A DNA stretch of 41,424 nucleotides from Chloroflexota bacterium (GCA_022570885.1 JACZYW010000001.1:1-41424), one strand, 5' to 3'; positions 2,099 to 20,149 are shown, counted from the stretch's first letter. The notes: a model not told the origin generated them from the letters alone. Numbers and translations are program-made.

Positions 2099-2335
2099 GG
2101 GGGTGACGTGTCGACGATAGATGAACCAGGTGCGAGCCGGCCGGACGGCCAGAGCCAAGAGGTCGAACGGCCTTTGGCCCAGCCAGTTCTGCCGGGCATA
2201 GCAGCGACAGACGAACAGGGTGATAAGCGAACCGAGGCAACAGGAGAACACGGAGCAGGAGGGGCGTCAGACCCCAGCGTGTCCCAACGTGGCCGGAGCA
2301 AGGCTAGTCGGGGCGCAAAGAGGAAGGAGAGAGCG

Positions 2336-3400
2336 ATGAGCGAGAAGCTGAACGGACTGCCCCCCATCAAAGTCGTTGGTGTGGGGGGAGGCGGTTGCAA
2401 CGCCGTGAACCGCATGATCGGCGAGGAGATGGAAGGCGTCCAGTTCGTCGGCATCAACACCGACGCGCAGGCGCTGGCCCGCTGCGAGGCGCCGGTGCGT
2501 GTTCGCATCGGCGAGAAGCTGACCAAGGGGCTGGGCGTCGGCGGCGATGCGGAGAAGGGTTTGCGCTCCGCCGAGGAGAGCCGCGATGAGATCCTGGACG
2601 CGGTGCGCGGCGCGGAGATGGTGTTCGTGACCGCCGGCATGGGCGGCGGCACCGGCACTGGCGCCTCGCCGGTGGTGGCGGAGGTCGCGCGCGAGGTGGG
2701 CGCCCTCACTGTCGGCGTCGTTACCAAGCCCTTCAGCTTCGAAGGGGCGAAGCGCCGCGAGCAGGCGGACGAGGGTATCAACCTGCTCCGCCAGCACGTC
2801 GACACCTTGATCATCATCCCCAACGACCGCCTGCTGGACATCAGCGGGCCGGAGGTGACGGTGGAGGAGGCGTTCCGCACGGCCGACGATGTCCTTCGCC
2901 AGGGCATCCAGGGCATCTCAGAGCTGATCACCCTGCCCGGCGAGATCAACCTGGACTTCGCGGACGTACGGCGGATCATGCAGGACGCCGGCCCGGCGCT
3001 GCTCGCCGTTGGGAAGGCGAGCGGCGAGGATCGGGCGGTAGCGGCGGCCCGCGAGGCCATCAGCAGCCCGCTGCTGGATATTAGCATCGAGGGCGCGAAG
3101 GGCGTGCTCTTCAACGTCACCGGCGCTCGCAACCTGTCGCTGCACGAGCTCCACGCGGCGGCCCAGGTGATCGCCGAGGTGGTGGCGCCGGATGCCGAGA
3201 TCATCTTCGGCACGGCGATCGACCCCAGCTTGGGCGATGAGGTGAAGGTGACGGTGATCGCGACCGGCTTCCCCGTGGGGCCGCGGGCGCTCGAAGCAGA
3301 GAAGGCCAGCCTTGGCCAACACTTCGGCGCGGAGCCGCCGGCCCCCGCGACGGATACGGAGCTTCCCGCCTTCCTGCGTCGCACCGTAGAGGTGCGTTAG
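2336..3400 (+). CDS. ftsZ: cell division GTPase FtsZ
   Basis: Contains [15 protein letters not shown] and the tubulin signature [16 protein letters not shown] 2336 is preceded by the SD AGGAAGGAGA. The track ORF opens at GTG 2108, but the extra 76 aa are low-complexity and not FtsZ-like. Confidence 0.94.
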
Positions 3401-3628: not shown

Positions 3629-4684
3629 TTAGCTCTGCTGGCTCAGCCGCCGGCGCCAGTAGCCCAGCCCGATCAGGCCCATCCCTAGGCTGGCCAACGT
3701 AACGACGAAGCTGAAGAGCGAGCCAATGCCACCTGGCAGAGGGAACCCGCCACCCGTTTCCGGCGGCCCCTTCACCGCTGGCCCCGGCGTCGCGGTCGGG
3801 TCTGCCACCGTTGGCTCCGGCGTCGCGGATGGCCCGATCACCGTCGGCAGAATCTCGGACGTGGGCGTCGTTTCAGGAGCTGTCGTGGTAGGTGTCGCCT
3901 CAGTCGGCGTGGCCGTGGGCAGTGGCGGCGTGGCCGTGGGCGGCGTAGCCGTGGGCGGTGGCGGCGTAGCCGTGGGCGGTGGCGGCGTGGCCGTGGGTGG
4001 TGGCGGCGTGGCCGTGGGCGGTGGCGGCGTGGCCGTGGGCGGTGGCGGCGTGGCCGTGGGCGGTGGCGGCGTGGCCGCGGGTGATAGCGGTGTGGCCGCG
4101 GGTGGTGGCGGCGTGGCCGTGGGCGGTGGCGGCGTGGCCGTGGGCGGTGGCGGCGTGGCCGTGGGCGAGACGCCGCACGGAGGGAAGCTTTCCGATCTCT
4201 CCGGGTTCAAGTCCGGCCGCTGGCTGGTGTCGACTTCAACTCGAATGGAGTTGGCGTCCGGACTGACGCCGGCGCTGCTGAGCGGGCCGTATAAGAGGAC
4301 GACGCTTTCCCCAGGATCCAGGGTGACATTGACTGCAACGGAGGCGCCGGTCGTAAGGAAGAAGGGGCTGCCTCCGAGGGCGGGTGGGATGTGCTGCGCG
4401 AGTACCAGCGGTATCTGGTCCGATACCTGATCCTGCGTCCGGTTCGCCACGGTGATGGTGCCGCTTACACTCCCGTCGGGCGCACAGGTGGCTGTGATCG
4501 ACACGATCTCCACTGGCCCGAAGGGTTGCCCCGCGGTGGATGAGCTTCTCATCAGAGCGACGCCGATGGTGACGAAGGTTGCCAGACACAGGAGCGCCGT
4601 GAGCAGGCCTAAGAGCACGGTGAGCGGGAAAGACCCTGCCGGTGAAGCTTTCCGCCGTTGTCGGTAATGTATCGACCCAGACAT
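3629..4684 (-). CDS. membrane/cell-surface protein with TATPPPP tandem repeats and a sortase-signal-like C-terminus
   Basis: 351 aa. N-terminal TM/signal-anchor FPLTVLLGLLTALLCLATFVTIGVAL, a globular part, then about 11 TATPPPP heptads. The C-terminus reads GPPETGGG + hydrophobic segment (IGSLFSFVVTLASLGMGLIGLGYW) + RRRL. SD GGGGGA lies upstream of the ATG. Confidence 0.7.
   Translation of the reverse strand: MSGSIHYRQRRKASPAGSFPLTVLLGLLTALLCLATFVTIGVALMRSSSTAGQPFGPVEIVSITATCAPDGSVSGTITVANRTQDQVSDQIPLVLAQHIPPALGGSPFFLTTGASVAVNVTLDPGESVVLLYGPLSSAGVSPDANSIRVEVDTSQRPDLNPERSESFPPCGVSPTATPPPPTATPPPPTATPPPPAATPLSPAATPPPPTATPPPPTATPPPPTATPPPPTATPPPPTATPPPPTATPPTATPPLPTATPTEATPTTTAPETTPTSEILPTVIGPSATPEPTVADPTATPGPAVKGPPETGGGFPLPGGIGSLFSFVVTLASLGMGLIGLGYWRRRLSQQS
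3906..4166. repeat. 21-bp in-frame tandem repeat (about 12 copies) encoding TATPPPP
   Basis: The unit GCCGTGGGCGGTGGCGGCGTG is reiterated with few substitutions. It lies inside CDS 3629-4684 and generates spurious ORFs in several frames. Confidence 0.9.
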
Positions 4685-4929
4685 ACCGATGTCCCCCTAT
4701 ACCCTGAGCACCACCCTCATAATGAGGGTCTAGCCCACGCCGCTTGAAGCAGCTATGGGCGTCGTATCAAGGCGGGGTATGTCACGTCTAGGCGGGGATG
4801 CCTACAGTATCTTTACATCTTCGAACGCGGTATAGCAACGGTCGTTACAGGTAAAGGGAAAGTTGCGCAGGGCGCCCGCGTGGGTCTAGTGCGGCCTAGA
4901 TTGGGTTAGTGCGTCGGCACTGGTTGGCG

Positions 4930-6213
4930 CTACTCGACGAGCACCACATCCGGGGCTTCGAAAGTGCGGAACTCTCCATACGTGAGGTCGAGGGGCGAGT
5001 TGCCGGATAGTTGAAAGCCGTTCACGATGAGCTGCACCGTGCCGAATTGAGAGTCGCCACTGATGTCTAACGTGGCCCCCGGCGCGTAGAAGATGCCGCT
5101 GATCAGATCGTTGCTCCCACGCATCTTAAAGTCAGCGGTGATCGCTTCGTCCTGCCAGAGGGTGATGCCTTCATAGGGGCCGGAGGTGGGCGGAGACAAG
5201 TCCATAGCGCCGGAACCCGTCAGGTCGAACGGCTTGGGCGCGCCATCTCCCGTGGGATTGGTCGGATTTTCCGTGACGTAGATCATGACTCCGTCGCCAA
5301 CAAAGCTCGCACCGCCTGCCTTGGAGAAGCCACCGCCGGCCATGATATAGATGCCGGGCTGGAGCGTGATGGTACAGGTGCAGTTGGAGTAGAAGCCGCC
5401 GTAGTACGTGCCGGGATACAGCGTGAAGTCTCCGCCGCTAGTGACGGTCCACGTATCGGGGTTCACGGCGGTACCGGAGGATCCCGGCGCTGGCGACCCC
5501 AGCGAGGGCGGTGACAGGCTCGCCAGCGGGTCGCTGACCGTCCAAGACACACTATTCGGCTCCGGGCTGATAGTGCCCGAACCGCCGACGTCGTATCCGC
5601 CGTACACGTCAATACTGCCTTCCACGATGAGGTCGCCGGCGCCGGTCTTGCTCAGAGCGTCGGATGGGCAGCTAGAGTTGACCATGACGCCGCCCCCGGC
5701 GATCGTCAGGCTGGCATTCCCTTGCTGTCTGAAAGATTGGCAATCGTCCGGGTCCAGCACAACCAGAGCATACGGTTCTGGGAAGAGGGGGAAGCCGGCC
5801 ACCCCGCGTGCCTGCACCGTCGAGCCGCCTGGTATCAAGACATGGATGAAGAACGTCGGCGGTTGCTCGGAGACGATCACCTCCACGTAGAGTGGATCGC
5901 CAACATGCGCGCCTGAAGTGGGTGGGATGTTGACCGTAACCGTGCTGGAGCCGCCGCTGTTGTCGAAGCCGTTCTCGTCTGCGTATGCCAGCGCCGTGGT
6001 GGTGGCATCGGCAACGCTGCGGCCGTTGAACAGCTCGTAGGTTGCGGCGAGCGCCGCCTCGTCGGCAGCGTTCTGCGCCTGGCGATGCTCCGCGTAGAGA
6101 TAACCGACGTCGATGACAAGTCCAGTGAAGGCGAGGAGGGCGACGATCACGAATGCCGAGAGCACAAGTATCTGCCCTCGTTCGTCCCGTAGCGTTCGTA
6201 GATTGCGCTTCAT
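4930..6213 (-). CDS. TadG-like pseudopilin / Flp-pilus-assembly TadE/G-like N-terminal domain protein
   Basis: 427 aa. The N-terminus RDERGQILVLSAFVIVALLAFTGLVIDVGYLYAEHRQAQNAADEAALAA is typical of the TadG-like N-terminal domain. The remainder is G/S/T-rich and beta-rich. SD GAGGAG precedes the ATG. Confidence 0.72.
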   Translation of the reverse strand: MKRNLRTLRDERGQILVLSAFVIVALLAFTGLVIDVGYLYAEHRQAQNAADEAALAATYELFNGRSVADATTTALAYADENGFDNSGGSSTVTVNIPPTSGAHVGDPLYVEVIVSEQPPTFFIHVLIPGGSTVQARGVAGFPLFPEPYALVVLDPDDCQSFRQQGNASLTIAGGGVMVNSSCPSDALSKTGAGDLIVEGSIDVYGGYDVGGSGTISPEPNSVSWTVSDPLASLSPPSLGSPAPGSSGTAVNPDTWTVTSGGDFTLYPGTYYGGFYSNCTCTITLQPGIYIMAGGGFSKAGGASFVGDGVMIYVTENPTNPTGDGAPKPFDLTGSGAMDLSPPTSGPYEGITLWQDEAITADFKMRGSNDLISGIFYAPGATLDISGDSQFGTVQLIVNGFQLSGNSPLDLTYGEFRTFEAPDVVLVE

Positions 6214-6232
6214 GGAGGCGACTCCTCGTGTG

Positions 6233-6682
6233 CTAATTAGCGATCGCCATGGTCGACGAGCTGGACATGTCGAACTCGAGTATCCCGAACATGTTGAAGA
6301 TAGGCGTGTACGTGTATTGAGAGGACACCGTGACTCGGTTGCCCTTCTCGTTGGTGCCGTCGATCCAGGTGGTTTCCACCGTCAACTGCAAAGTGTTCAG
6401 TGAGCCGGCATGGTTCTCAACCACCTGGGAAACCTGCGTATCGCTGTTCGGGGACGTGTAATAGCTGCTGCCCGGCCCGCTGGGATCCGAGGAGTCGGCG
6501 CCGTGGACGATCGCGTAGCGAGTGCCCTCTCGCGTCGCCTCGGCCAGCGCGTTGTAGTGCCAGACGGCGCGGCCGATGTCGATCATGCCGAAGACCAGCA
6601 TGAAGAAGATAAGCGAGATCAGTGCGAACTCCGTCAACGCTTGGCCGCCCTCGCCCCGTTTGGCAACGCGGAACCGCCTCAT
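6233..6682 (-). CDS. TadE-like pseudopilin
   Basis: GQALTEFALISLIFFMLVFGMIDIGR matches the prepilin-like G/xxxxEF motif plus hydrophobic helix. The start is taken at the internal ATG 6682, which overlaps the upstream stop as ATGA. The track ORF extends to 6742. Confidence 0.72.
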   Translation of the reverse strand: MRRFRVAKRGEGGQALTEFALISLIFFMLVFGMIDIGRAVWHYNALAEATREGTRYAIVHGADSSDPSGPGSSYYTSPNSDTQVSQVVENHAGSLNTLQLTVETTWIDGTNEKGNRVTVSSQYTYTPIFNMFGILEFDMSSSSTMAIAN

Positions 6683-7143
6683 TCCCTGACCCTCGCTGTC
6701 ACCGTACGGGCGACATCTATCGATTCTGGTATGCCCGGCCAAGGGAAGAGCATGTTGAAGGTGTAGGTCACGGTCACATCAACGCGGCGATGGTCCGGGC
6801 CGAACCACCCATCGGTGGTCACGGAAACGGCTGGGTTGGTCGGTGAAAGGTTGAGCAGGTCACTGGTGTCTGCGACGACAGCGTTCCTGATGCCGTCCTC
6901 GTCGCAAGAGACGGCGCAGTTACGGGCTGCGTAGTCCGCGCCGGTGCGGGCGCTGTTTGTCACCGATACGTATGCGAAGTAGACTCGCCCGAAGTCGATG
7001 GCGCCCAGGACCAGGAGTATGAGTACGGGCAACATCAGCCCGAACTCCACCAGGCTCTGGCCGCGCTTATCGCCGATAAGCCGTCGCAGCGATCTCCGGT
7101 GCCGCTTGCCCTGGGCTGCCTGCGATGATTCCTGCATGCTCAT
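6679..7143 (-). CDS. TadE-like pseudopilin
   Basis: 154 aa. GQSLVEFGLMLPVLILLVLGAIDFGRVYFAY matches the TadE N-terminal motif. SD GGAGGG is 5 nt upstream of the ATG. Confidence 0.72.
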   Translation of the reverse strand: MSMQESSQAAQGKRHRRSLRRLIGDKRGQSLVEFGLMLPVLILLVLGAIDFGRVYFAYVSVTNSARTGADYAARNCAVSCDEDGIRNAVVADTSDLLNLSPTNPAVSVTTDGWFGPDHRRVDVTVTYTFNMLFPWPGIPESIDVARTVTARVRE

Positions 7144-7209
7144 GTGCCCTCCGGTGGCAATGCCCCTAGCCCACCGCCCTCGAGCCTGCGTGTGGGCCGA
7201 AGGCTCCGA

Positions 7210-7303
7210 AGAGGTCCGGCAGCCCGGCTGTCCTCTTCCCGTATAGGTGGTGGACCCGTGGCTTTGCGTCCCCGGCTCTCGCCGGGTTTGCCCTGTTCGG
7301 AGT
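7210..7303 (-). promoter_or_regulatory. c-di-GMP-I (GEMM) riboswitch aptamer in the 5' leader of the tadE-like operon
   Basis: The minus strand reads CUCCGAACAGGGCAAACC-CGGC-GAGA-GCCG-GGGACGCAAAGCC-ACGGGUCC...GGACAGCCGGGCUGCCGGA. The blocks ACAGGGCAAACC and GGGACGCAAAGCC are identical to my recollection of the Vibrio Vc2 aptamer. There is a 4-bp helix with a GNRA loop, and the second helix has an AG bulge. The aptamer ends 70 nt before ATG 7143. Confidence 0.85.
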
Positions 7304-7452
7304 CATCTATCCGGTTTTAAGGCGGAACCCCTAGGGGGCTCACCACAGTCATCATCGACCATCCAGCGAAAATCCTTAGCCGTCTTACGTAGCCCAACAC
7401 GCTCGCTACCCTCGATAGATGCTATTATGACTACTAAATATGGGGAGATTGG

Positions 7453-8637: not shown

Positions 8638-11424
<2,787 letters not shown>

Positions 11425-11996: not shown

Positions 11997-12272
11997 CTAG
12001 CGCAGCGACGGGGGTTGCCAGTGCCAACTGGGGGGCGAAGAGGGAGCGCCGTTGGCGCCTCCGCGGAGCCATCGCCGCGTCCGCTCGCGGAAGGGGGGCG
12101 ACGGCGCGACCGATAGGGGAAGGCTTGGGATCAGTCGAGCTACCTCTAACAGCGCCTCGAGCTCTGCTCGGTGAGCTGGGTAGCGCTCAAGGCAGGCCTG
12201 CACCTCGGTCTCGCCCTGCCGCAGCGCCTCCAGGCACTCGGCCAGCGCCCTGACGATCTCCTCCTCAGCCAT
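11997..12272 (-). CDS. short anti-sigma-factor-like protein (possibly truncated)
   Basis: Start at ATG 12272 overlaps the sigma gene stop by 8 nt. MAEEEIVRALAECLEALRQGETEVQACLERYPAHRAELEALLEVARL resembles the N-terminal helix pair found downstream of ECF sigmas. There is no TM or extracytoplasmic domain, and the tail is P/S-rich. Confidence 0.5.
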   Translation of the reverse strand: MAEEEIVRALAECLEALRQGETEVQACLERYPAHRAELEALLEVARLIPSLPLSVAPSPPFRERTRRWLRGGANGAPSSPPSWHWQPPSLR

Positions 12273-12852
12273 TGGCCGCCAACTCCGTCGCACCTTCGGC
12301 TTTCAGCTGCTTGCGCAGCGCGTTCAGCGCTCGGTGCTGGATGACGCGCACCGCCGCCACGCTCTTCCCAAGGATCTCCGCCACCTCGCGATACTCCAGG
12401 TCTTCCACAAAGCGCAGGATAATCACCTTGCGGTGCTCGTCTCGCAGCTTCAGGATCGCGTCGTGCACGCGTTCGCTGTTCAACCGCTGATCAAGAGCCG
12501 CCTCCGGATTTTGCAGGCGGCTGTGGTCTATCAGCGTCTCCGGAAGCTCCGCGTTCTGTTTTCGGGAGCGCAGGTAGCTCACGCCCAGGTTGTGGGCAAT
12601 GCGAAGCAGCCAGGAGACGAAGGGCGCGGCCCGCGGCTGATATCGAGGGATGGCTTGCCAAGCCTGGAGGAAGGCCTGCGCCGTGAGATCTTCCGCCTCG
12701 GCTGGGTTCCCTACCATATAGTAGATGTGACGATACACTCGCACCACATGCCGATCGTAGAGCGCGCCGAATGCCGCTTGGTCACGGGCGATAGCCCGCA
12801 GCACCAGGGTGCGCTCGTCTACTTCTTCCTGCGGGGCAATGGACTTGAGCAT
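12265..12852 (-). CDS. ECF-type RNA polymerase sigma-70 family factor
   Basis: Region 2 (YRHIYYMVGNPAEAEDLTAQAFLQAW) and region 4 HTH (YREVAEILGKSVAAVRVIQHRALNALR). Start chosen at ATG 12852; the track ORF opens at 12930. Confidence 0.9.
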   Translation of the reverse strand: MLKSIAPQEEVDERTLVLRAIARDQAAFGALYDRHVVRVYRHIYYMVGNPAEAEDLTAQAFLQAWQAIPRYQPRAAPFVSWLLRIAHNLGVSYLRSRKQNAELPETLIDHSRLQNPEAALDQRLNSERVHDAILKLRDEHRKVIILRFVEDLEYREVAEILGKSVAAVRVIQHRALNALRKQLKAEGATELAANG

Positions 12853-12871
12853 TGTCCTACTCGATCTTCGA

Positions 12872-12897
12872 AACGGGATGGCCCGGCAAACGTTACC
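12872..12897 (-). promoter_or_regulatory. candidate ECF-type (autoregulatory) promoter
   Basis: The minus strand reads GGTAAC-N16-CGTTT, ending about 20 nt upstream of the sigma ATG. This matches the generic ECF pattern G(G/T)AAC-N16/17-CGT. Confidence 0.3.
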
Positions 12898-12985
12898 GGC
12901 CTCGCTCAGGAGACTGCCTAAGCTGTGCAAAAGCCTTCTATATCGTTAGGATCGGCAGATTCGGAGGCGAACGAGAGGGGTGTCC

Positions 12986-15175
12986 TTATGCCGCGGGCTC
13001 TGCTGCCTCAGCCGGCTTAGAGCCGCCGTCTCCCTGATCGTCGCTCTCTGCCGGAGCTTCGTCCGACGGTTGCTCGTAGGAGTCACGGAGAATGTTGGGG
13101 ATCTGCTCCTGGTCCGAGCCTTCTGCTGCAGCCACCGTCTCCGTAGCGTCCAACTCGAACAGAAACGTCCAGGAGCCGACCGTGAACGTCTCGCCGGAAT
13201 CCAGGATCAGCCAGCTACCGGGCATCGACCCGCTGGTGCTCAACCGTTGCAGCTCGTGCACCATGAGCTTTCCATCTCGGACCCAGACTCTCGCCCACTC
13301 CGGAACGATCTCCTCGTCTCCATCTTTCTCGGGAAGCTTGATGAGACAGCGATAGCCGGAGCCGATGCTGGCGGCCGCGTCGCTCACCGGGAACGCCTGG
13401 CCCTGGAGCGAGCCGCTGGTGACCATCAGGCGGCCCAGCGGCTTGTTGGTGAGGACCGGCGTCGCCGGCGGCGGTTCGTCGCCCCAAAGCGGCCGAGGCG
13501 TAGGATTCTTGTTCCATCCGCCTGTGACGATGGGCCCGGGCGACGGGCCTTGTGGCGCATCCGGGTCGGGCTCTCCCTCGTCGCTGCGCCGCCGCCGCAG
13601 CAGGTAGCGCACGAAGAGCGCCCCGCCCACGCCCGCGACCACGATCAGCCCGGCCGCGATGAGAAGGCTTAGGCTCATCGTCTCGCCTTCGCTCGTGCGC
13701 ACCGTTACCGCGGCCGTGGCTGTTAAGCCGGCGTCGGTGACAACCTCAACTTGGAGCGTGTGCTCTCCACCCGCTGAGGAGGCTGGGTCGAAGCTGAACT
13801 CGTAAGGTGGCTCGGTGAGCTCTAGCACGGACTCGCCGTCCACCAGGAAGGTGACGCTGCTGATGGGATCGAGCGATTCGATCTCGGCGGTCACGGTGCG
13901 CGTTTCAGTGAGCTGCTCGTCGGAGGTCACGCCGCTTAATGTGACCGACGGTGCGGCTGGCGGGCCGGTGCGCACCAGCACCGCCGTTGACGTTGCCGTC
14001 CGCCCGGTGGTGGTGGCCACCGTTACCTGGAGCGAGTGCTCGCCGTCGCTGACGAGCGCCGGGTCGAACGTGAACTGGTAGGGCGGCTCAGTGAGCTGTA
14101 GCACCGCTTCGCCGTTCACTAGGAAGGTGACGCTGCTGATGGGATCGGCCGAGACGATCTGGGCGATCACGATGCGCGCGCCCTCTAGCCGCTCGCCTGG
14201 CTCCACCGCGCTCAGCGTCACGATCGGCCCCCGGGGCTCGAACGTGCGCTCGCCACTGCCCGTCAGCTCGCCTGTGGTCACGTCCACGCGGAGGGTGACC
14301 GCCTGCGATTCGTCCAGGGTGATCCCGGTCGTGTCTAGCGTGAGGATGTACTGGCCTCGCAGCAGCTCAGCCGCTTCCGCATAGAGCTGGGCCAGCCCCT
14401 GCGGCGATGGTGTCTCTGCGAACCGGCCGCCGCTTCCCTGGGCCAGCTCCTGAAGGTACGCGCGGTCGATGCCAGTACCGAGCCCGATGGCGAACACCGG
14501 CACGCCCAGCGTCTGAGCTGTCGTGAGGGCGTCGGCGCGCGAGAGCAGACTGCCGTCGTCGACGCCGTCGGTCAACAGCACCACCGTCAGGCGGCTGTTG
14601 CCGGAGTCGGCCGCCAGCCGGACGCTCGCGACCGTCGCGTCGTATAGCGCTGTATTGCCGCTCGCGACGAGGCCATCGATCGCAGCGCCTGCCGCTGCTC
14701 TGTCCGTCGTGAACGCCAAGAGCGGCGCCACAGTATCGGCGAAGGCGACGATAGCGACGGTGTCCTGTGGCCCAAGGTCGTCCAGGAAGCGATGGGCGGC
14801 TGTCTTCGCCTGGGTCAAGGCGCCACCGGCCATGCTGCCGCTTACGTCCAGCGCCAGCACGACGGCGATGCCCAAGCTGCTGTCTACGCCGCGGGTGACC
14901 GCGCTTACCGGCACGGCGGCGCCGTTGAGGTTGGCCTGGAACTGCTCAGCCGTTAGGTCGGCCAGCGGGCGGCCGTCGCTCGCCAGCACCGTCACCACCG
15001 CTTGCGCCTGCGAAGATTCGTCTGTGGTGAAGCTGGCCACCTCTACCGTCAGCGTCTCTTCCTGCGCGAGCCCGGCTACCGGCGAAAGCAACAGCGTCGC
15101 TAAGGCCAGGAGCAGCCATATCAGGTGGCTCCAGCGCAGACGTGACTTCAGTTCACGCTGCCGTCGATGTAACAC
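12986..15175 (-). CDS. secreted vWA domain - 2x Ig-like repeat - TM - cytoplasmic FHA domain protein
   Basis: 729 aa, GTG start with SD GGAGGG. Signal peptide LIWLLLALATLLLSPVAGLAQE. vWA MIDAS motif LALDVSGSM. Two roughly 90-aa paralogous repeats (...DPISSVTFLV(N/D)GE(A/S)VL(Q/E)LTEPPY(Q/E)F(T/S)FDP...). TM LLIAAGLIVVAGVGGALFV + RYLLRRRR. FHA-like C-terminus (LGRLMV..G...G..F.....SIGSG..C.I.L....VS..HA-like pattern). Confidence 0.85.
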   Translation of the reverse strand: MLHRRQRELKSRLRWSHLIWLLLALATLLLSPVAGLAQEETLTVEVASFTTDESSQAQAVVTVLASDGRPLADLTAEQFQANLNGAAVPVSAVTRGVDSSLGIAVVLALDVSGSMAGGALTQAKTAAHRFLDDLGPQDTVAIVAFADTVAPLLAFTTDRAAAGAAIDGLVASGNTALYDATVASVRLAADSGNSRLTVVLLTDGVDDGSLLSRADALTTAQTLGVPVFAIGLGTGIDRAYLQELAQGSGGRFAETPSPQGLAQLYAEAAELLRGQYILTLDTTGITLDESQAVTLRVDVTTGELTGSGERTFEPRGPIVTLSAVEPGERLEGARIVIAQIVSADPISSVTFLVNGEAVLQLTEPPYQFTFDPALVSDGEHSLQVTVATTTGRTATSTAVLVRTGPPAAPSVTLSGVTSDEQLTETRTVTAEIESLDPISSVTFLVDGESVLELTEPPYEFSFDPASSAGGEHTLQVEVVTDAGLTATAAVTVRTSEGETMSLSLLIAAGLIVVAGVGGALFVRYLLRRRRSDEGEPDPDAPQGPSPGPIVTGGWNKNPTPRPLWGDEPPPATPVLTNKPLGRLMVTSGSLQGQAFPVSDAAASIGSGYRCLIKLPEKDGDEEIVPEWARVWVRDGKLMVHELQRLSTSGSMPGSWLILDSGETFTVGSWTFLFELDATETVAAAEGSDQEQIPNILRDSYEQPSDEAPAESDDQGDGGSKPAEAAEPAA

Positions 15176-15562: not shown

Positions 15563-15684
15563 CCTCCGATAAAGGCGCGGCGCGGGAAACCGCGTTTGGC
15601 CGAAAGGCCCCCGGCGATTCGTCCGGGCGCAAAGCTTCGGGTCTACTCCCCGCGAGGGGAACGACAGCCGAGCTGCCGAAGAGG
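15563..15684 (+). promoter_or_regulatory. divergent GEMM (c-di-GMP-I)-like riboswitch candidate
   Basis: The 3' half CGCAAAGCUUCGGGUC-...-GACAGCCGAGCUGCCGAAG matches the 7210-7303 element (ACGCAAAGCCACGGGUCC-...-GGACAGCCGGGCUGCCGGA), including the AG bulge and compensatory helix changes. Both share the 5' CUCCGA. The first helix is replaced by three hairpins, two with GAAA loops. CCGAA (15676-80) can alternatively pair with UUCGG (15690-94), which overlaps the SD GGAGG. Confidence 0.5.
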
Positions 15685-15704: not shown

Positions 15705-16040
15705 ATGAAGCGGACATTAGCACGAGCCAGCTGCGCCGGTCTCCTGGCTGTTCTTCTCTCCACAGGCACTGGACTTGTCATCCTCGGGTTCGCGTTCGTC
15801 CCCACGAGCGAGACCACCAGCGTCTCCCTGGCGGCGACAGCGACTCCCACCTACGTCTCTGAGTTAGCGCCGGCTGTGGTGGTGCAGCCGCGCCAGGCCG
15901 CTGCCCTGCCCGATTCCGGCGCCGGCCCGAACCTCGGCGCGGCCAACCCGCTGCCCCGGGCGGCCGGCTTTGCGCTCTTGCTGCTGGGCGGCCTGCTGAT
16001 ACGTACTGGCCTCGCCTGGCGCTCCAGCACGAACCGCTAG
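15705..16040 (+). CDS. small secreted protein with an LPxTG-like (LPDSG) C-terminal signal
   Basis: 111 aa. SD GGAGG is 7 nt upstream. Signal peptide LARASCAGLLAVLLSTGTGLVILGFA. The C-terminus is LPDSGAG...FALLLLGGLLI + RTGLAWRSSTNR. Confidence 0.6.
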   Translation: MKRTLARASCAGLLAVLLSTGTGLVILGFAFVPTSETTSVSLAATATPTYVSELAPAVVVQPRQAAALPDSGAGPNLGAANPLPRAAGFALLLLGGLLIRTGLAWRSSTNR

Positions 16041-16118: not shown

Positions 16119-16562
16119 GTGTCCAATCCCATCAGCCGTCTGGTCGAGCGTCGCTCGCTCCAGGCCGATGTCCGCCGAGCTCTCATGTCTGGCGTTGGCC
16201 TCTATCACACCACCTGGCCCTTCGAGAATAGCGCGGCAGCCGAGGCGAGCGAGGAGCTCACCGCGCAGCTAGTCGGCTGGTGCAGGGAGGTGCTGGGCGA
16301 AACGCGCCGGCCGTATGGGTTGGATTACGTGACGCTGGCGGTGGGGCTGCTCCGCGAAGGGGAGGGCCAGGTAGCGAGCGTCAACTTCGGCGTGCTCCGC
16401 CCCAGCGATTTCTACAACCAAAGCTTCGTGGAGGAGCAGGTACGGGAGACGCTGTGCTCCTGGTCTCGCTTTCCCACCATCGCCGGCGAGAGCGCCGGCA
16501 GCCTGTCCGTGGTGCTCTTTAGTTGGGGCGACCTGACCCGAGAGCTGCTCTTGGCGAGCTAA
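16119..16562 (+). CDS. hypothetical protein
   Basis: 147 aa, GTG start with SD GGGAGG. It ends 12 nt before the AAA+ gene. No recognisable motif. Confidence 0.55.
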   Translation: MSNPISRLVERRSLQADVRRALMSGVGLYHTTWPFENSAAAEASEELTAQLVGWCREVLGETRRPYGLDYVTLAVGLLREGEGQVASVNFGVLRPSDFYNQSFVEEQVRETLCSWSRFPTIAGESAGSLSVVLFSWGDLTRELLLAS

Positions 16563-16574
16563 GGAGGTTACACC

Positions 16575-17936
16575 ATGACCACAGAGACGACGCCCTCTAT
16601 CACGCGAGACGAGCCCGCTGAGCCCGACACCCCCACCGGCGCCTTCGTGCCCCAGCCGAGGAGCATCGAGGAGACGGGGCTGGAGCTCTCGCTCCTGGTT
16701 GACCTGGCGCTGAAGTCCATCCACTTCAGCGGCCGGCCTACCGGACGCCAGTTGGGCGAGCATCTCGCCTTGGCCTTCCCGGTGATCGAGGAGATCGTCG
16801 CGTTTCTCCGCCAAGAGCAGGCCATCGAGGTCGTCGGCAGTTCAGGCATTGGAGAGCAGGCGTATCAGTATGCACTATCGAAGCGGGGCACGGAGAAGGC
16901 GGAGGAGGCCTTGGGGCGCAATCAGTACGTCGGGCCGGCGCCGGTCCCCCTCTCGCTCTATACCGATGTCTTGCAGCACCAGTCCGTGCGCGATGTCCAC
17001 ATCGACCGTCAAACGTTCCTCGATGGGGTCTCGCACCTAGTCTTGAGTCGAAACGTGCTGGCTGCGTTGGGCCCGGCGGCTAACACCGGCCGCTCTGTGC
17101 TCATTTACGGCAACTCCGGCAACGGCAAGAGCAGCCTCGCCCTCGCTATCGCCGGCATGATGCCAGGCGCAGTGCTGATCCCGTACGCGGTAGAGGTGCA
17201 TGGGCAGATCATCAAGGTGTTCGATCCGCGCATGCACGAACCGGCGAAGCCGCAGGTGGCGGAGGAACGCCGGCAGACCGCCGCCTCGCCACCTGCTGGG
17301 CGGGAACGCCGCCAGGACCGGCGCTGGGTGGTGGCGAAGCGCCCGATGATTCGGGTGGGCGGCGAGCTGACGCTCCAGGATTTGGAGCTGCGGTATTCGG
17401 AGCTTTCCAAGTTCTACATCGCGCCGTTGCAGTGGAAGGCGAACAGCGGTGTGCTCATCATCGATGACTTTGGCCGGCAGCTGGTGCAGCCGAGAGAGCT
17501 GCTCAACCGCTGGATCGTGCCGATGGAGCAGGGGGTGGATCGCCTCTCGCTCCACACCGGCGATACGTTGGACTTGCCCTTCGAGGTCTTGCTCATCTTC
17601 TCGACGAACATCCCGCCGGCGAAGCTGGGCGACGAGGCGTTCTTCCGTCGCATCCGGCACAAGGTAGAGGTCCCCAACCCTACCCGAGAGGAGTATCTGG
17701 CGATCCTGGTTCGGGTCTGCGAGGAGCAGGGCGTTGCGCACACGGAGGAAGGCGCGCGTTACCTGGTTGAGGCCTACTATGATCAGACTGACCGTGAATT
17801 CAAGGGCTGCCATCCCCGAGACCTGGTGGAGCTCCTGATCGATATCACCAACTTCTACGGCGAGGAGCCGGAGCTGACGCCGGAGTGGATCGACCTGGCC
17901 TGCTCCTCCTACTTCGTCGAGGCTGAGGCTGCCTAG
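16575..17936 (+). CDS. AAA+ ATPase with an N-terminal winged-helix-like domain
   Basis: 453 aa with strong SD AAGGAGG. Walker A is LIYGNSGNGKSS and Walker B is VLIIDDFG. NRWIVPMEQGVDRLSLHTGDTLDLPFEVLLIFSTN...DEAFFRRI follows an AAA_5/MoxR-like layout. Confidence 0.85.
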   Translation: MTTETTPSITRDEPAEPDTPTGAFVPQPRSIEETGLELSLLVDLALKSIHFSGRPTGRQLGEHLALAFPVIEEIVAFLRQEQAIEVVGSSGIGEQAYQYALSKRGTEKAEEALGRNQYVGPAPVPLSLYTDVLQHQSVRDVHIDRQTFLDGVSHLVLSRNVLAALGPAANTGRSVLIYGNSGNGKSSLALAIAGMMPGAVLIPYAVEVHGQIIKVFDPRMHEPAKPQVAEERRQTAASPPAGRERRQDRRWVVAKRPMIRVGGELTLQDLELRYSELSKFYIAPLQWKANSGVLIIDDFGRQLVQPRELLNRWIVPMEQGVDRLSLHTGDTLDLPFEVLLIFSTNIPPAKLGDEAFFRRIRHKVEVPNPTREEYLAILVRVCEEQGVAHTEEGARYLVEAYYDQTDREFKGCHPRDLVELLIDITNFYGEEPELTPEWIDLACSSYFVEAEAA

Positions 17937-19053: not shown

Positions 19054-19143
19054 AGAGGCTCCCGGCCGTTCGGCCGGGAGCCTCTCTCTTCGCTGCGGTG
19101 CTACTCCGCCTCTACGGCGGCCCGACGAAGACCATGGTGAAGT
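19054..19143. repeat. 90-bp perfect direct repeat, right copy (terminator + authentic 3' end of the CAP gene)
   Basis: Identical to 17961-18050. It overlaps the CDS stop at 19112. Confidence 0.97.
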
Positions 19144-19981
19144 ACTTCATGTTCCCATCGGCGGCGAACCCGACGCCTAGCTGCGTAAACTCGACGTGGA
19201 GGATGTTCGCCCGGTGGCCGGGGCTGTTCATCAGGTCGCGGATGGCCACGGCCACGCTCTCGCTGTCGGGATAGTTGTTCCGCGCCAGGTTCTCCCCGGC
19301 CCAGCCGTAGCCCACGTTGTTCTCGTTCATGAGCGAGAAGGCGGTGTCACCGTGTGGGCTCTCATGCGCGAAGTAGTCTTTCGCTGCCATATCCTCAGAG
19401 CGGAGATTGGCGACGAACACCACGCATGAGTTGAGGCCCAGCGCTGACATCCCGTTGTCAGCCCTCGCGCTGTTGATGGCGTCGAAGAGCGCCTGCGCGA
19501 AGCTTCCCATGGCGGCCGTGGGACAGCTTGGGGGCTGGGGCGTAGGAACAGCCGTCGGCGGCACCGCCGTGGGTGGTACTGCGGTCGGCGCTAGCGCTAG
19601 CGGCACGGCGGTTGGCGCTAGCGGTACTGCGGTTGGCGCTGGCGATACTGCGTTCGGATCTCCCAACGCTGGCGTAGGTGTCAGAAGCGAAAGCGGCGTT
19701 CCTATCGGCGTTGGCGAGGCTGCGCGCGTCGCCGTGGGGATGATAGTGGCCGTAGGATCGTCCGCGATGGTGCTGCTGCCGTCCGCTGGCTCGACCGCTG
19801 TGAGCTCGTCGGCGGCGCTGGAAGCGGGCGCCCCGTCCCAATCCACTGCGAGAAGGAACGTTGCAGAGAAGGCGAAGAGGCTGAGCCCGCCGATGATCAA
19901 CGCCGCTCGTAGCAGCGCGACGCGCGTATTGCCCGTCAGCCAGCGAAGGCGCCCAAAGCGGCGGGGTGGAATGTTGTCCAT
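19112..19981 (-). CDS. membrane-anchored CAP/SCP (PR-1/YkwD-like) domain protein
   Basis: Start at ATG 19981 (SD GGAG); the track ORF opens at 20128. TM ALLRAALIIGGLSLFAFSATFLL. Pro/Thr/Ala linker with PTAVP repeats. C-terminal SCP-like ...DMAAKDYFAHESPHG...GWAGENLA...LMNSPGHRANIL.... Confidence 0.82.
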   Translation of the reverse strand: MDNIPPRRFGRLRWLTGNTRVALLRAALIIGGLSLFAFSATFLLAVDWDGAPASSAADELTAVEPADGSSTIADDPTATIIPTATRAASPTPIGTPLSLLTPTPALGDPNAVSPAPTAVPLAPTAVPLALAPTAVPPTAVPPTAVPTPQPPSCPTAAMGSFAQALFDAINSARADNGMSALGLNSCVVFVANLRSEDMAAKDYFAHESPHGDTAFSLMNENNVGYGWAGENLARNNYPDSESVAVAIRDLMNSPGHRANILHVEFTQLGVGFAADGNMKYFTMVFVGPP

Positions 19982-20119
19982 GTTTGCTCCGATCTCGCGT
20001 AAGCAGCGAATGTGTATGTAGAGGAGTCTCTTAGGGAATATCGGCGTAGTAGGTGAAAACCTTAAGGGAAATGGAGCGAACAGTGGCAACAGATGGCCCG
20101 AAACTTGCCGCGAACCTGC

Positions 20120-20149
20120 TTGACACACCTCGCAGATTCCAGATAGACT
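20120..20149 (+). promoter_or_regulatory. candidate promoter of the rpsL operon
   Basis: TTGACA (20120-20125), 18 nt, TAGACT (20144-20149), about 175 nt upstream of rpsL. Confidence 0.4.

Follow-up and report, generated by a model that had tools for sequence, protein, structure and literature searches.

A c-di-GMP-class riboswitch upstream of a TadE-TadE-TadG pseudopilin operon in an uncultivated Dehalococcoidia bacterium

A riboswitch-preceded gene module between ftsZ and nrdR

A 41,424-nucleotide stretch of DNA from a Chloroflexota bacterium (GCA_022570885.1, JACZYW010000001.1:1-41424; approximately 65% GC), called here the window, carries on its minus strand a gene module in which a riboswitch of the cyclic di-GMP (c-di-GMP) class precedes genes for pilin-like proteins of the Tad (type IVc) pilus families. 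In the direction of transcription, the module consists of an aptamer (7214-7301), for which Rfam RF03167 is the best model; a 70-nt leader with the expression platform (7144-7213), delineated by sequence and folding; two tadE-like genes, tadE1 (6679-7143, 154 amino acids, aa) and tadE2 (6233-6682, 149 aa); a tadG-family gene (4930-6213, 427 aa); a 245-nt spacer (4685-4929); and a gene for a repeat-rich surface protein (3629-4684, 351 aa) whose membership in the module is uncertain. The ftsQ-ftsA-ftsZ genes on the plus strand end at position 3400 and converge with the module, and nrdR, followed by the gene for a class II ribonucleotide reductase, diverges from it on the plus strand from position 7440. 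Bounded in this manner, the module cannot be transcribed together with a tad locus. The initial annotation had raised the possibility of a complete tad locus just outside the window on the same transcript; the strand layout, which is kept in relatives, excludes it. The nearest named relatives of the TadG-family protein are encoded by Chloroflexi/Dehalococcoidia metagenome-assembled genomes (MAGs) (proteins P0002 and P0017, 82% and 66% identity; P codes denote homologous proteins, and L codes denote contigs of relatives or metagenomes). The host is an uncultivated member of the Dehalococcoidia, a monoderm-type lineage of Chloroflexota.

The aptamer was matched over its full length by RF03167, "c-di-GMP-I-GGC" (positions 1-80 of 80, 75.9 bits for a gathering threshold of 59, E = 2e-16; cmscan), which places it by score in the GEMM-I clan CL00126, and a custom covariance model, R1, scored it at 112 bits. 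The tadE1 ATG follows 70 nt beyond the end of the aptamer, on the same strand. An alignment of ten aptamers, that of the window and those of nine relatives, revealed the invariant pattern AGGGCAAA...GACGCAAAGC...GCUGCCG. In the Vc2 riboswitch, the ligand is contacted by G20, A47 and C92 (PMC4744006). When this numbering is mapped by alignment onto the window aptamer, the putative equivalents of G20 and A47 fall in the GGCAAA..GACGCAAAGC region, which is invariant in all ten sequences. At the A47-equivalent position, the RF03167 consensus reads CGCGAAG, and the window and the nine relatives read CGCAAAG, like canonical c-di-GMP-I aptamers. A G at this position is presumably what the name of the "GGC" variant means, and the variant was reportedly defined by Weinberg in PNAS in 2017. 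The window aptamer has an A there, in GACGCAAAGC, and does not carry the G of the variant. Thus, RF03167 is the best-scoring model for this aptamer and its relatives, yet the ligand-contact position looks canonical. Since the G20, A47 and C92 contacts all appear canonical, c-di-GMP is the expected ligand. What the model picks up seems, from these alignments, to be a sequence subtype of the Chloroflexota and not a change in the binding site, which flags the Rfam "GGC" model as one that catches canonical-looking c-di-GMP aptamers in this phylum.

Immediately 3′ of the P1 stem lies CUCUUCGG (7213-7206), followed by a GC hairpin formed by GGCCCAC (7198-7192) and GGUGGGC (7175-7169) and by the Shine-Dalgarno (SD) sequence CCGGAGGG at 7154-7147. 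In the aptamer-folded state, CUCUUCGG is paired with the SD sequence, and this expression platform is kept in L082, L084, L006b, L092, L119 and L130. The leaders of L006c and L105 are short, and there the 3′ strand of P1 doubles as the SD sequence GGAG. In both arrangements ligand binding would hide the SD sequence, as expected of an OFF switch, and the modeled structures lean slightly toward c-di-GMP turning expression off. A terminator/antiterminator leader is unproven: the post-aptamer GC hairpin formed in both the free and the aptamer-constrained folds of most leaders, and that of the window is devoid of a U-tail. The riboswitch cannot serve nrdR, which is on the opposite strand.

Two TadE minor pilins and a TadG-family protein

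The initial annotation had described two TadE-like genes and one TadG-like gene on the basis of prepilin-type motifs, and profile searches confirmed all three. Both small proteins matched PF07811 well above the threshold of 22.9 bits (TadE1, E = 4.6e-15, 55.9 bits; TadE2, E = 6.9e-14, 52.1 bits). They carry class III signals, KRG/QSLVEF in TadE1 and GGG/QALTEF in TadE2 (the slash denotes the predicted processing site), with Glu at position +5 in each. The ATG of tadE2 overlaps the stop codon of tadE1 (ATGA), and tadG starts 19 nt past the end of tadE2. TadE1 has orthologues at the same position in L001, L082, L084, L006 and L119, and 149-aa orthologues of TadE2 were found in L001, L083 and L084.

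The third protein matched PF13400 (E = 2e-13, 50.9 bits for a threshold of 22.3). Its signal, ERG/Q, has no Glu at +5. In an alignment of 46 TadG homologues, Gly13 is present in 44 and Gln14 in 40, approximately 22 hydrophobic residues follow, and position +5 is hydrophobic in every sequence. GspK-type capping pseudopilins show the same pattern, with no Glu5.

An AlphaFold2 (AF2) model of TadG was obtained with a mean predicted local distance difference test (pLDDT) score of 90.8, 305 residues scoring at least 90. It is composed of an N-terminal helix (residues 2-62), a small α/β pilin-like module and a β-solenoid spanning residues 148-412 approximately (pLDDT above 90). The top Foldseek match in the PDB was ComZ, a Thermus competence minor pilin with a β-solenoid (E = 4e-4); with a TM-score of about 0.18 and 11% identity, this is a likeness at the level of the fold only. 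The next matches were β-solenoid ice-binding proteins of the DUF3494 family and the tapirin adhesins of Caldicellulosiruptor. A sequence-profile search of the PDB with the TadG family returned no solved relative. Cys158 and Cys182 are kept in 41 of the 46 homologues, which suggests that TadG has an extracytoplasmic or extracellular location.

The extreme C terminus of the protein is also conserved. It reads L-[VIA]-[EQH] (VLVE in the window), Leu being found at position -3 in 43 of 43 full-length members from six phyla, and the residues ahead of this motif are divergent. DSSP assigned a strand to residues 424-425 of the model. In Caulobacter, CpaL/TadG is a minor-pilin-like protein with a von Willebrand factor A (vWA) adhesin domain and a candidate prepilin cleavage site (PMC12607857); it is an analogue of PilK/GspK, and its extreme C-terminal β-strand is needed for piliation (PMC13533445). 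The conserved C terminus of the TadG family fits such a strand.

Relatives of the module and its genomic surroundings

Contigs of relatives were collected with a narrow alignment, A2, after a single-protein pattern had given 192 matches with no relative among them and a first alignment, A1, had proved too diverse. The arrangement in which nrdR and ftsZ flank the aptamer-TadE-TadE-TadG module is kept in L001/L002, L082 and L084/L085 (TadG identity 63-82%), and the aptamers of these relatives were confirmed by both Rfam and R1. Beyond this setting, an aptamer precedes TadE/TadG modules in L003 (twice), L006 (three times), L007, L092, L105, L119, L130 and L145. The initial annotation had claimed that a riboswitch gates the pseudopilin genes; a c-di-GMP-class aptamer was indeed found, and orthologous modules have it ahead of them in no fewer than ten other independent contigs, arguing that the pairing is no coincidence.

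Several of these contigs carry more than one copy. L003 harbors two tadG genes that stand alone, both of them preceded by a separate aptamer, and L007 contains a further TadE/TadG array with an aptamer. The metagenome contigs L092, L105, L119, L130 and L145 have an aptamer ahead of TadE-TadE-TadG or TadE-TadG′ cassettes. The most elaborate case is L006 (Dehalococcoidia MAG CAYOSF010000027.1, 1-11814), where three aptamer cassettes, one of them a near-identical duplicate, lie on a single 11.8-kb contig with at least five TadG-family genes and six TadE genes. The TadG heads encoded there are of three kinds, β-solenoid, vWA and a variant of approximately 350-360 aa, and the contig also carries a TadE-TadG(vWA)-TadE cluster with no riboswitch. 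L006 has the appearance of a tip-cassette array, with the cassettes as alternatives to one another.

The aptamer is not universal in the family. It was not detectable in relatives of 41% identity or less (L004, L005 and L008-L081). In L083, whose TadG is 68% identical and whose genes follow the same TadE-TadE-TadG order in a genomic context other than nrdR/ftsZ, no aptamer was found in the 417-nt upstream region (8714-9131). This indicated that, within the clade, at least one loss or replacement of the riboswitch has taken place.

A metagenome scan with the aptamer core, run as a control and not as a census of the regulon, gave 76 matches from mixed taxa, about 10 of them Tad-related, and the core was not lineage-specific. 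In L093, L103 and L113 the core is directly upstream of Flp genes (encoding ..GQGMVEYGLII.., ..GQGMTEYGLII.. and ..GQGMTEYALII..), followed in two of the three by TadE genes, so c-di-GMP-I riboswitches elsewhere control a whole Flp/Tad pilin set. Other matches preceded flagellar rod (FlgB-like) genes and many genes for secreted proteins.

The gene for the repeat-rich protein, downstream of tadG, contains 12.8 copies of a 21-nt unit (3905-4167; Tandem Repeats Finder), which encode about 13 PTATPPP-type units forming a Pro/Thr stalk. An AF2 model built on a shallow alignment (pLDDT 67) comprises a transmembrane (TM) helix (residues 21-47), a well-modeled β-sandwich (58-165), the unstructured stalk and a second TM helix (320-350) followed by RRR. 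Foldseek matched the β-sandwich to the fibronectin type III (Fn3)-like domains of family 3 glycoside hydrolase (GH3) glucosidases, the Fn3/Ig-like fold being a generic one. The protein had no Pfam match at E ≤ 0.1. The initial annotation had described its tail as resembling a cell wall sorting signal. The tripartite layout stands, with ...PPETGGGFPLPGG ahead of the helix at 320-350 and the basic RRR, but no NCBIfam hidden Markov model (HMM) for LPXTG or other sorting signals matched at E ≤ 1, and the pre-anchor motif varies among homologues (PETGGG, PISGSG, PQAGGG and PDSGGE). A Pro/Thr stalk like that of the repeat protein, typical of the lineage, is also present in a secreted CAP/SCP protein of the window (19112-20128, minus strand), which is anchored at its N terminus and contains a linker of Pro/Thr/Ala-rich "PTAVP" repeats.

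Aligned with L082, the spacer downstream of tadG is conserved at approximately the level of coding sequence, and the blocks TCCCCGCCTA, ACCCCGCC and GCTATAnnGCGTT are common to L084 as well. It contains a conserved -35/-10-like element, TTTACC-N15-TATACC, and had no Rfam match at E ≤ 1. The spacer probably serves as a separate promoter and leader for the repeat protein gene, and it possibly holds an uncharacterized leader element.

We considered whether the aptamer, the three pseudopilin genes and the repeat protein form a single five-part appendage operon, with the Pro/Thr stalk protein cotranscribed and functionally coupled. The repeat protein gene is on the same strand, 245 nt downstream, no terminator was seen on the minus strand of the spacer, and L084/L085 carry an orthologue of 56% identity in the same position, as L082 does a partial copy. 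However, the slot before ftsZ is variable: filled by the repeat protein alone in the window, it holds a second TadE-TadE-TadG triplet in L001/L002 and a second tadG ahead of the repeat protein gene in L084/L085. The riboswitch-TadE/TadG cassettes of L003, L006, L092, L105 and L119 have no repeat protein, the spacer carries its own promoter-like element, and only 3 other family members were found in 5.8 billion proteins in addition to the syntenic L084 orthologue, compared with 728 matches to TadG at E ≤ 1e-5 among the candidates scored. A five-part operon is thus unlikely. The core of the initial reading, a c-di-GMP-gated pseudopilin set with no local machinery, was right, and the riboswitch and three genes are kept together in relatives; what does not hold is the inclusion of the repeat protein as a stable member. 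The latter is probably a neighboring, lineage-specific surface protein expressed from its own promoter.

The remainder of the window contains the str, S10, spc and alpha ribosomal operons (Pfam: EF-G, ribosomal proteins, SecY, Map, RpoA and TruA) and several features unconnected with the module. A second c-di-GMP-I riboswitch, of the canonical RF01051 type (49 bits), is located at 15596-15680 on the plus strand and is followed by three open reading frames (ORFs) on that strand. The first (15705-16040, 111 aa) encodes a signal peptide and an "LPDSGAG...TM...R" tail with no match to sorting-signal HMMs; the second (16119-16562, 147 aa) has no family match; the third (16575-17936) codes for a 453-aa AAA-type ATPase. 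A full-length homologue of this ATPase, 35% identical, is encoded directly behind a c-di-GMP-I aptamer in the unrelated metagenome contig L136, so riboswitches may target this ATPase family recurrently. On the minus strand, a 729-aa protein (12986-15175) starts with a signal sequence, continues with a vWA domain and a pair of Big_7 Ig domains, and has a TM helix and a cytoplasmic tail of about 200 aa. A sigma-70 family factor (12265-12930, minus strand) is encoded immediately downstream, probably in the same operon, and the two may be a surface-sensing or anti-sigma-like pair. Lastly, the longest ORF for FtsZ (2108-3400, plus strand; 430 aa, GTG start) has an N terminus about 76 aa longer than the 354-aa orthologues of L001 and L084; translation probably begins at an internal Met.

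A candidate Tad tip-initiation complex

Outside the Chloroflexota, genes for TadG homologues are embedded in tad operons. In L021 (Gemmatimonadaceae), a homologue of 34% identity lies in the series CpaB-CpaC(secretin)-TadZ-CpaF-TadB-TadC-TadE-TadG-TadE, and L030 is alike; homologues within full tad operons are 31-34% identical to the window protein. In L014 (Verrucomicrobia) and L033 (Thermoleophilia), the homologue adjoins TadZ/TadB/TadC or CpaF in partial operons. This indicated that the family is a true Tad component. The gene set of the window also has the composition of the CpaJ-CpaK-CpaL proteins of Caulobacter crescentus and of TadE-TadF-TadG of Aggregatibacter, each of which likewise comprises two small minor pilins with a G/xxxxE[FY] signal and one large pilin-like protein. 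The large protein of these sets combines an adhesin head with a possible site of prepilin cleavage and with a C-terminal strand, which in CpaL is required and in the window protein is putative. By analogy, the triplet is the counterpart of the recently defined Tad tip-initiation complex, a match that the initial annotation had missed.

We propose, with a probability of roughly two in three, that the operon at 7301-4930 on the minus strand encodes a complete Tad/type IVc tip-initiation ("priming") complex under the control of a c-di-GMP-sensing riboswitch. TadE1 and TadE2 would be the CpaJ/CpaK (GspI/GspJ-like) minor pilins, and TadG the CpaL/GspK-like capping subunit, presenting its β-solenoid as an adhesin head at the pilus tip while its extreme C-terminal strand folds back onto its own pilin module. 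Once cut at G/Q by a prepilin peptidase, the proteins would assemble into a TadE1-TadE2-TadG trimer in the membrane. The trimer would then license polymerization of a Flp-type major pilin by an ATPase and platform whose genes lie elsewhere in the genome. Since the gate would act on the tip complex and not on the fiber or the motor, c-di-GMP would decide whether pili start and, in genomes with several cassettes, would also pick the adhesin tip that is carried.

Several observations weigh against this interpretation. As the initial annotation had noted, the window contains no pilus machinery and no Flp-like ORF. Pfam analysis of its large ORFs revealed no CpaF, TadB/C, secretin or prepilin peptidase, no query dedicated to the peptidase being included; phmmer searches with CpaF, TadB, TadC, TadZ, CpaB and CpaC from a real tad operon had no match; and scanning of all six frames with an HMM of the TadE/Flp N terminus and the pattern G-x4-E-[YFL] returned only the three known genes. 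The set that defines a complete Tad/type IVc pilus system (Flp, TadV, TadA/CpaF, TadB and TadC) is thus absent from the 41-kb window. The same holds for about 25 Chloroflexota loci with TadG-family genes, as no CpaF, TadB, TadC, Flp or prepilin peptidase was found within 10 kb of them; the neighbors are unrelated metabolic genes, TadG being an orphan there, and many Dehalococcoidia homologues are lone TadG proteins with no adjacent TadE. In a MacSyFinder survey, Bin125 and the Dehalococcoidales among the rows listed all have Tad = 0, and some have a type IVb pilus (T4bP) entry of 1 (PMC12488501), so that the partner machine is undemonstrated for the lineage; the assemblies of our relatives are not among the rows listed in that supplement, and a paper on the Tepidiformales makes no mention of pili (PMC10284905). 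Formation of the trimer and insertion of the TadG C-terminal strand are suggested by conservation only. Finally, the full-length minimum-free-energy folds of the leader were ambiguous, and folding does not settle the polarity of the switch.

The absence of local machinery is nevertheless not anomalous. According to the same MacSyFinder survey, Tad systems occur in about one-third of Chloroflexota genomes, without secretins, and one Chloroflexota tad cluster listed there, flp-flp-tadV-tadE-tadE-tadG, has its tadE and tadG genes in the order seen in the window (PMC12488501); in Caulobacter, cpaL (TadG) is likewise an orphan, located apart from the cpa cluster (PMC12607857). An assembly system encoded elsewhere, one of the two options in the initial annotation, is therefore the default reading, and the other, an unconventional system, is speculation.

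The gaps just described would be expected if the proteins were adhesins that act independently of any filament, their TadE/TadG N termini serving only as signal anchors, with no pilus machine and with c-di-GMP tuning surface stickiness. The missing machinery within 10 kb of every Chloroflexota locus examined, the orphan genes with no TadE partner, the Tad = 0 entries and the diversity of the heads, from β-solenoid and vWA to the variant of about 350 aa, all fit this idea. However, the G/Q processing motif is strictly kept, the C-terminal L-V-E is common to members in true tad operons, and the TadE-TadE-TadG triplet is preserved and translationally coupled. None of these features has an obvious use for a plain anchored adhesin, making this alternative distinctly unlikely. 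We regard as similarly improbable a wider reading, in which these Dehalococcoidia have no Tad ATPase or platform and the riboswitch-gated arrays, whose cassettes differ in their head domains and in L006 reach three aptamers and five TadG-like genes within 12 kb, supply swappable tips for a non-Tad machine of T4b-like or archaeal type or act as filament-independent adhesins. If it were true, c-di-GMP would act directly on RNA to select the adhesive "tip repertoire" of the cell.

Class III signals generally suit A24 peptidases, and on this ground the cassette could also prime a non-Tad filament, such as a T4bP-like structure or an archaeal-type pilus or archaellum. T4bP in Dehalococcoidales and archaellum clusters in Dehalococcoidia (MacSyFinder; PMC12488501) would offer hosts for such a tip, but this is the least probable of the readings considered, as the TadG family sits in Tad operons outside the Chloroflexota and there is no evidence here of any machine in this genome.

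Regarded as a tip-initiation complex, the module differs from its Caulobacter counterpart in several respects, although cpaL also lies apart from the main pilus cluster in that organism (PMC12607857). All three tip genes of the window are detached from the machinery, not just the large one; they are placed behind a riboswitch in a monoderm-type lineage; and the head is a β-solenoid instead of CpaL's vWA domain with its metal ion-dependent adhesion site, and the likeness to CpaL is one of architecture. Thermus thermophilus ComZ, GspK and the tips of the PilX-PilY1 type likewise combine a pilin-like N-terminal module with a large inserted domain at the filament tip, but the resemblance to the β-solenoid of ComZ is at fold level only, and ComZ and GspK belong to other filament classes (type IVa/competence pili and type II secretion systems, respectively). 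As for regulation, the leader of Clostridioides difficile pilA1 contains a class II c-di-GMP riboswitch (Bordeleau 2015, as summarized in PMC6916266). Together with GEMM-I aptamers upstream of pilus/Flp genes, it provides a precedent for a c-di-GMP aptamer in the leader of a type IV filament subunit. In contrast to pilA1, the aptamer here is of class I, its polarity may be OFF rather than ON, and only the minor-pilin/tip set is regulated, not the major pilin or the whole locus.

All parts of the module come from known families, and it is their arrangement that is new, not the kind of system. New here are the detachment of the whole tip set from the machinery, its riboswitch control, the β-solenoid head and, in some relatives, the cassette arrays. 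The CpaJ/CpaK/CpaL complex was defined in 2025-2026, in Caulobacter alone; in the Dehalococcoidia its three-part counterpart would take the form of a free-standing riboswitch operon. This suggests that piliation can be controlled at a "licensing" step rather than at the fiber or the motor, and the cassette arrays may permit exchange of adhesin tips. One RNA and three proteins make up a compact system in which to study the control of pilus initiation by c-di-GMP and the targets bound by a β-solenoid tip.

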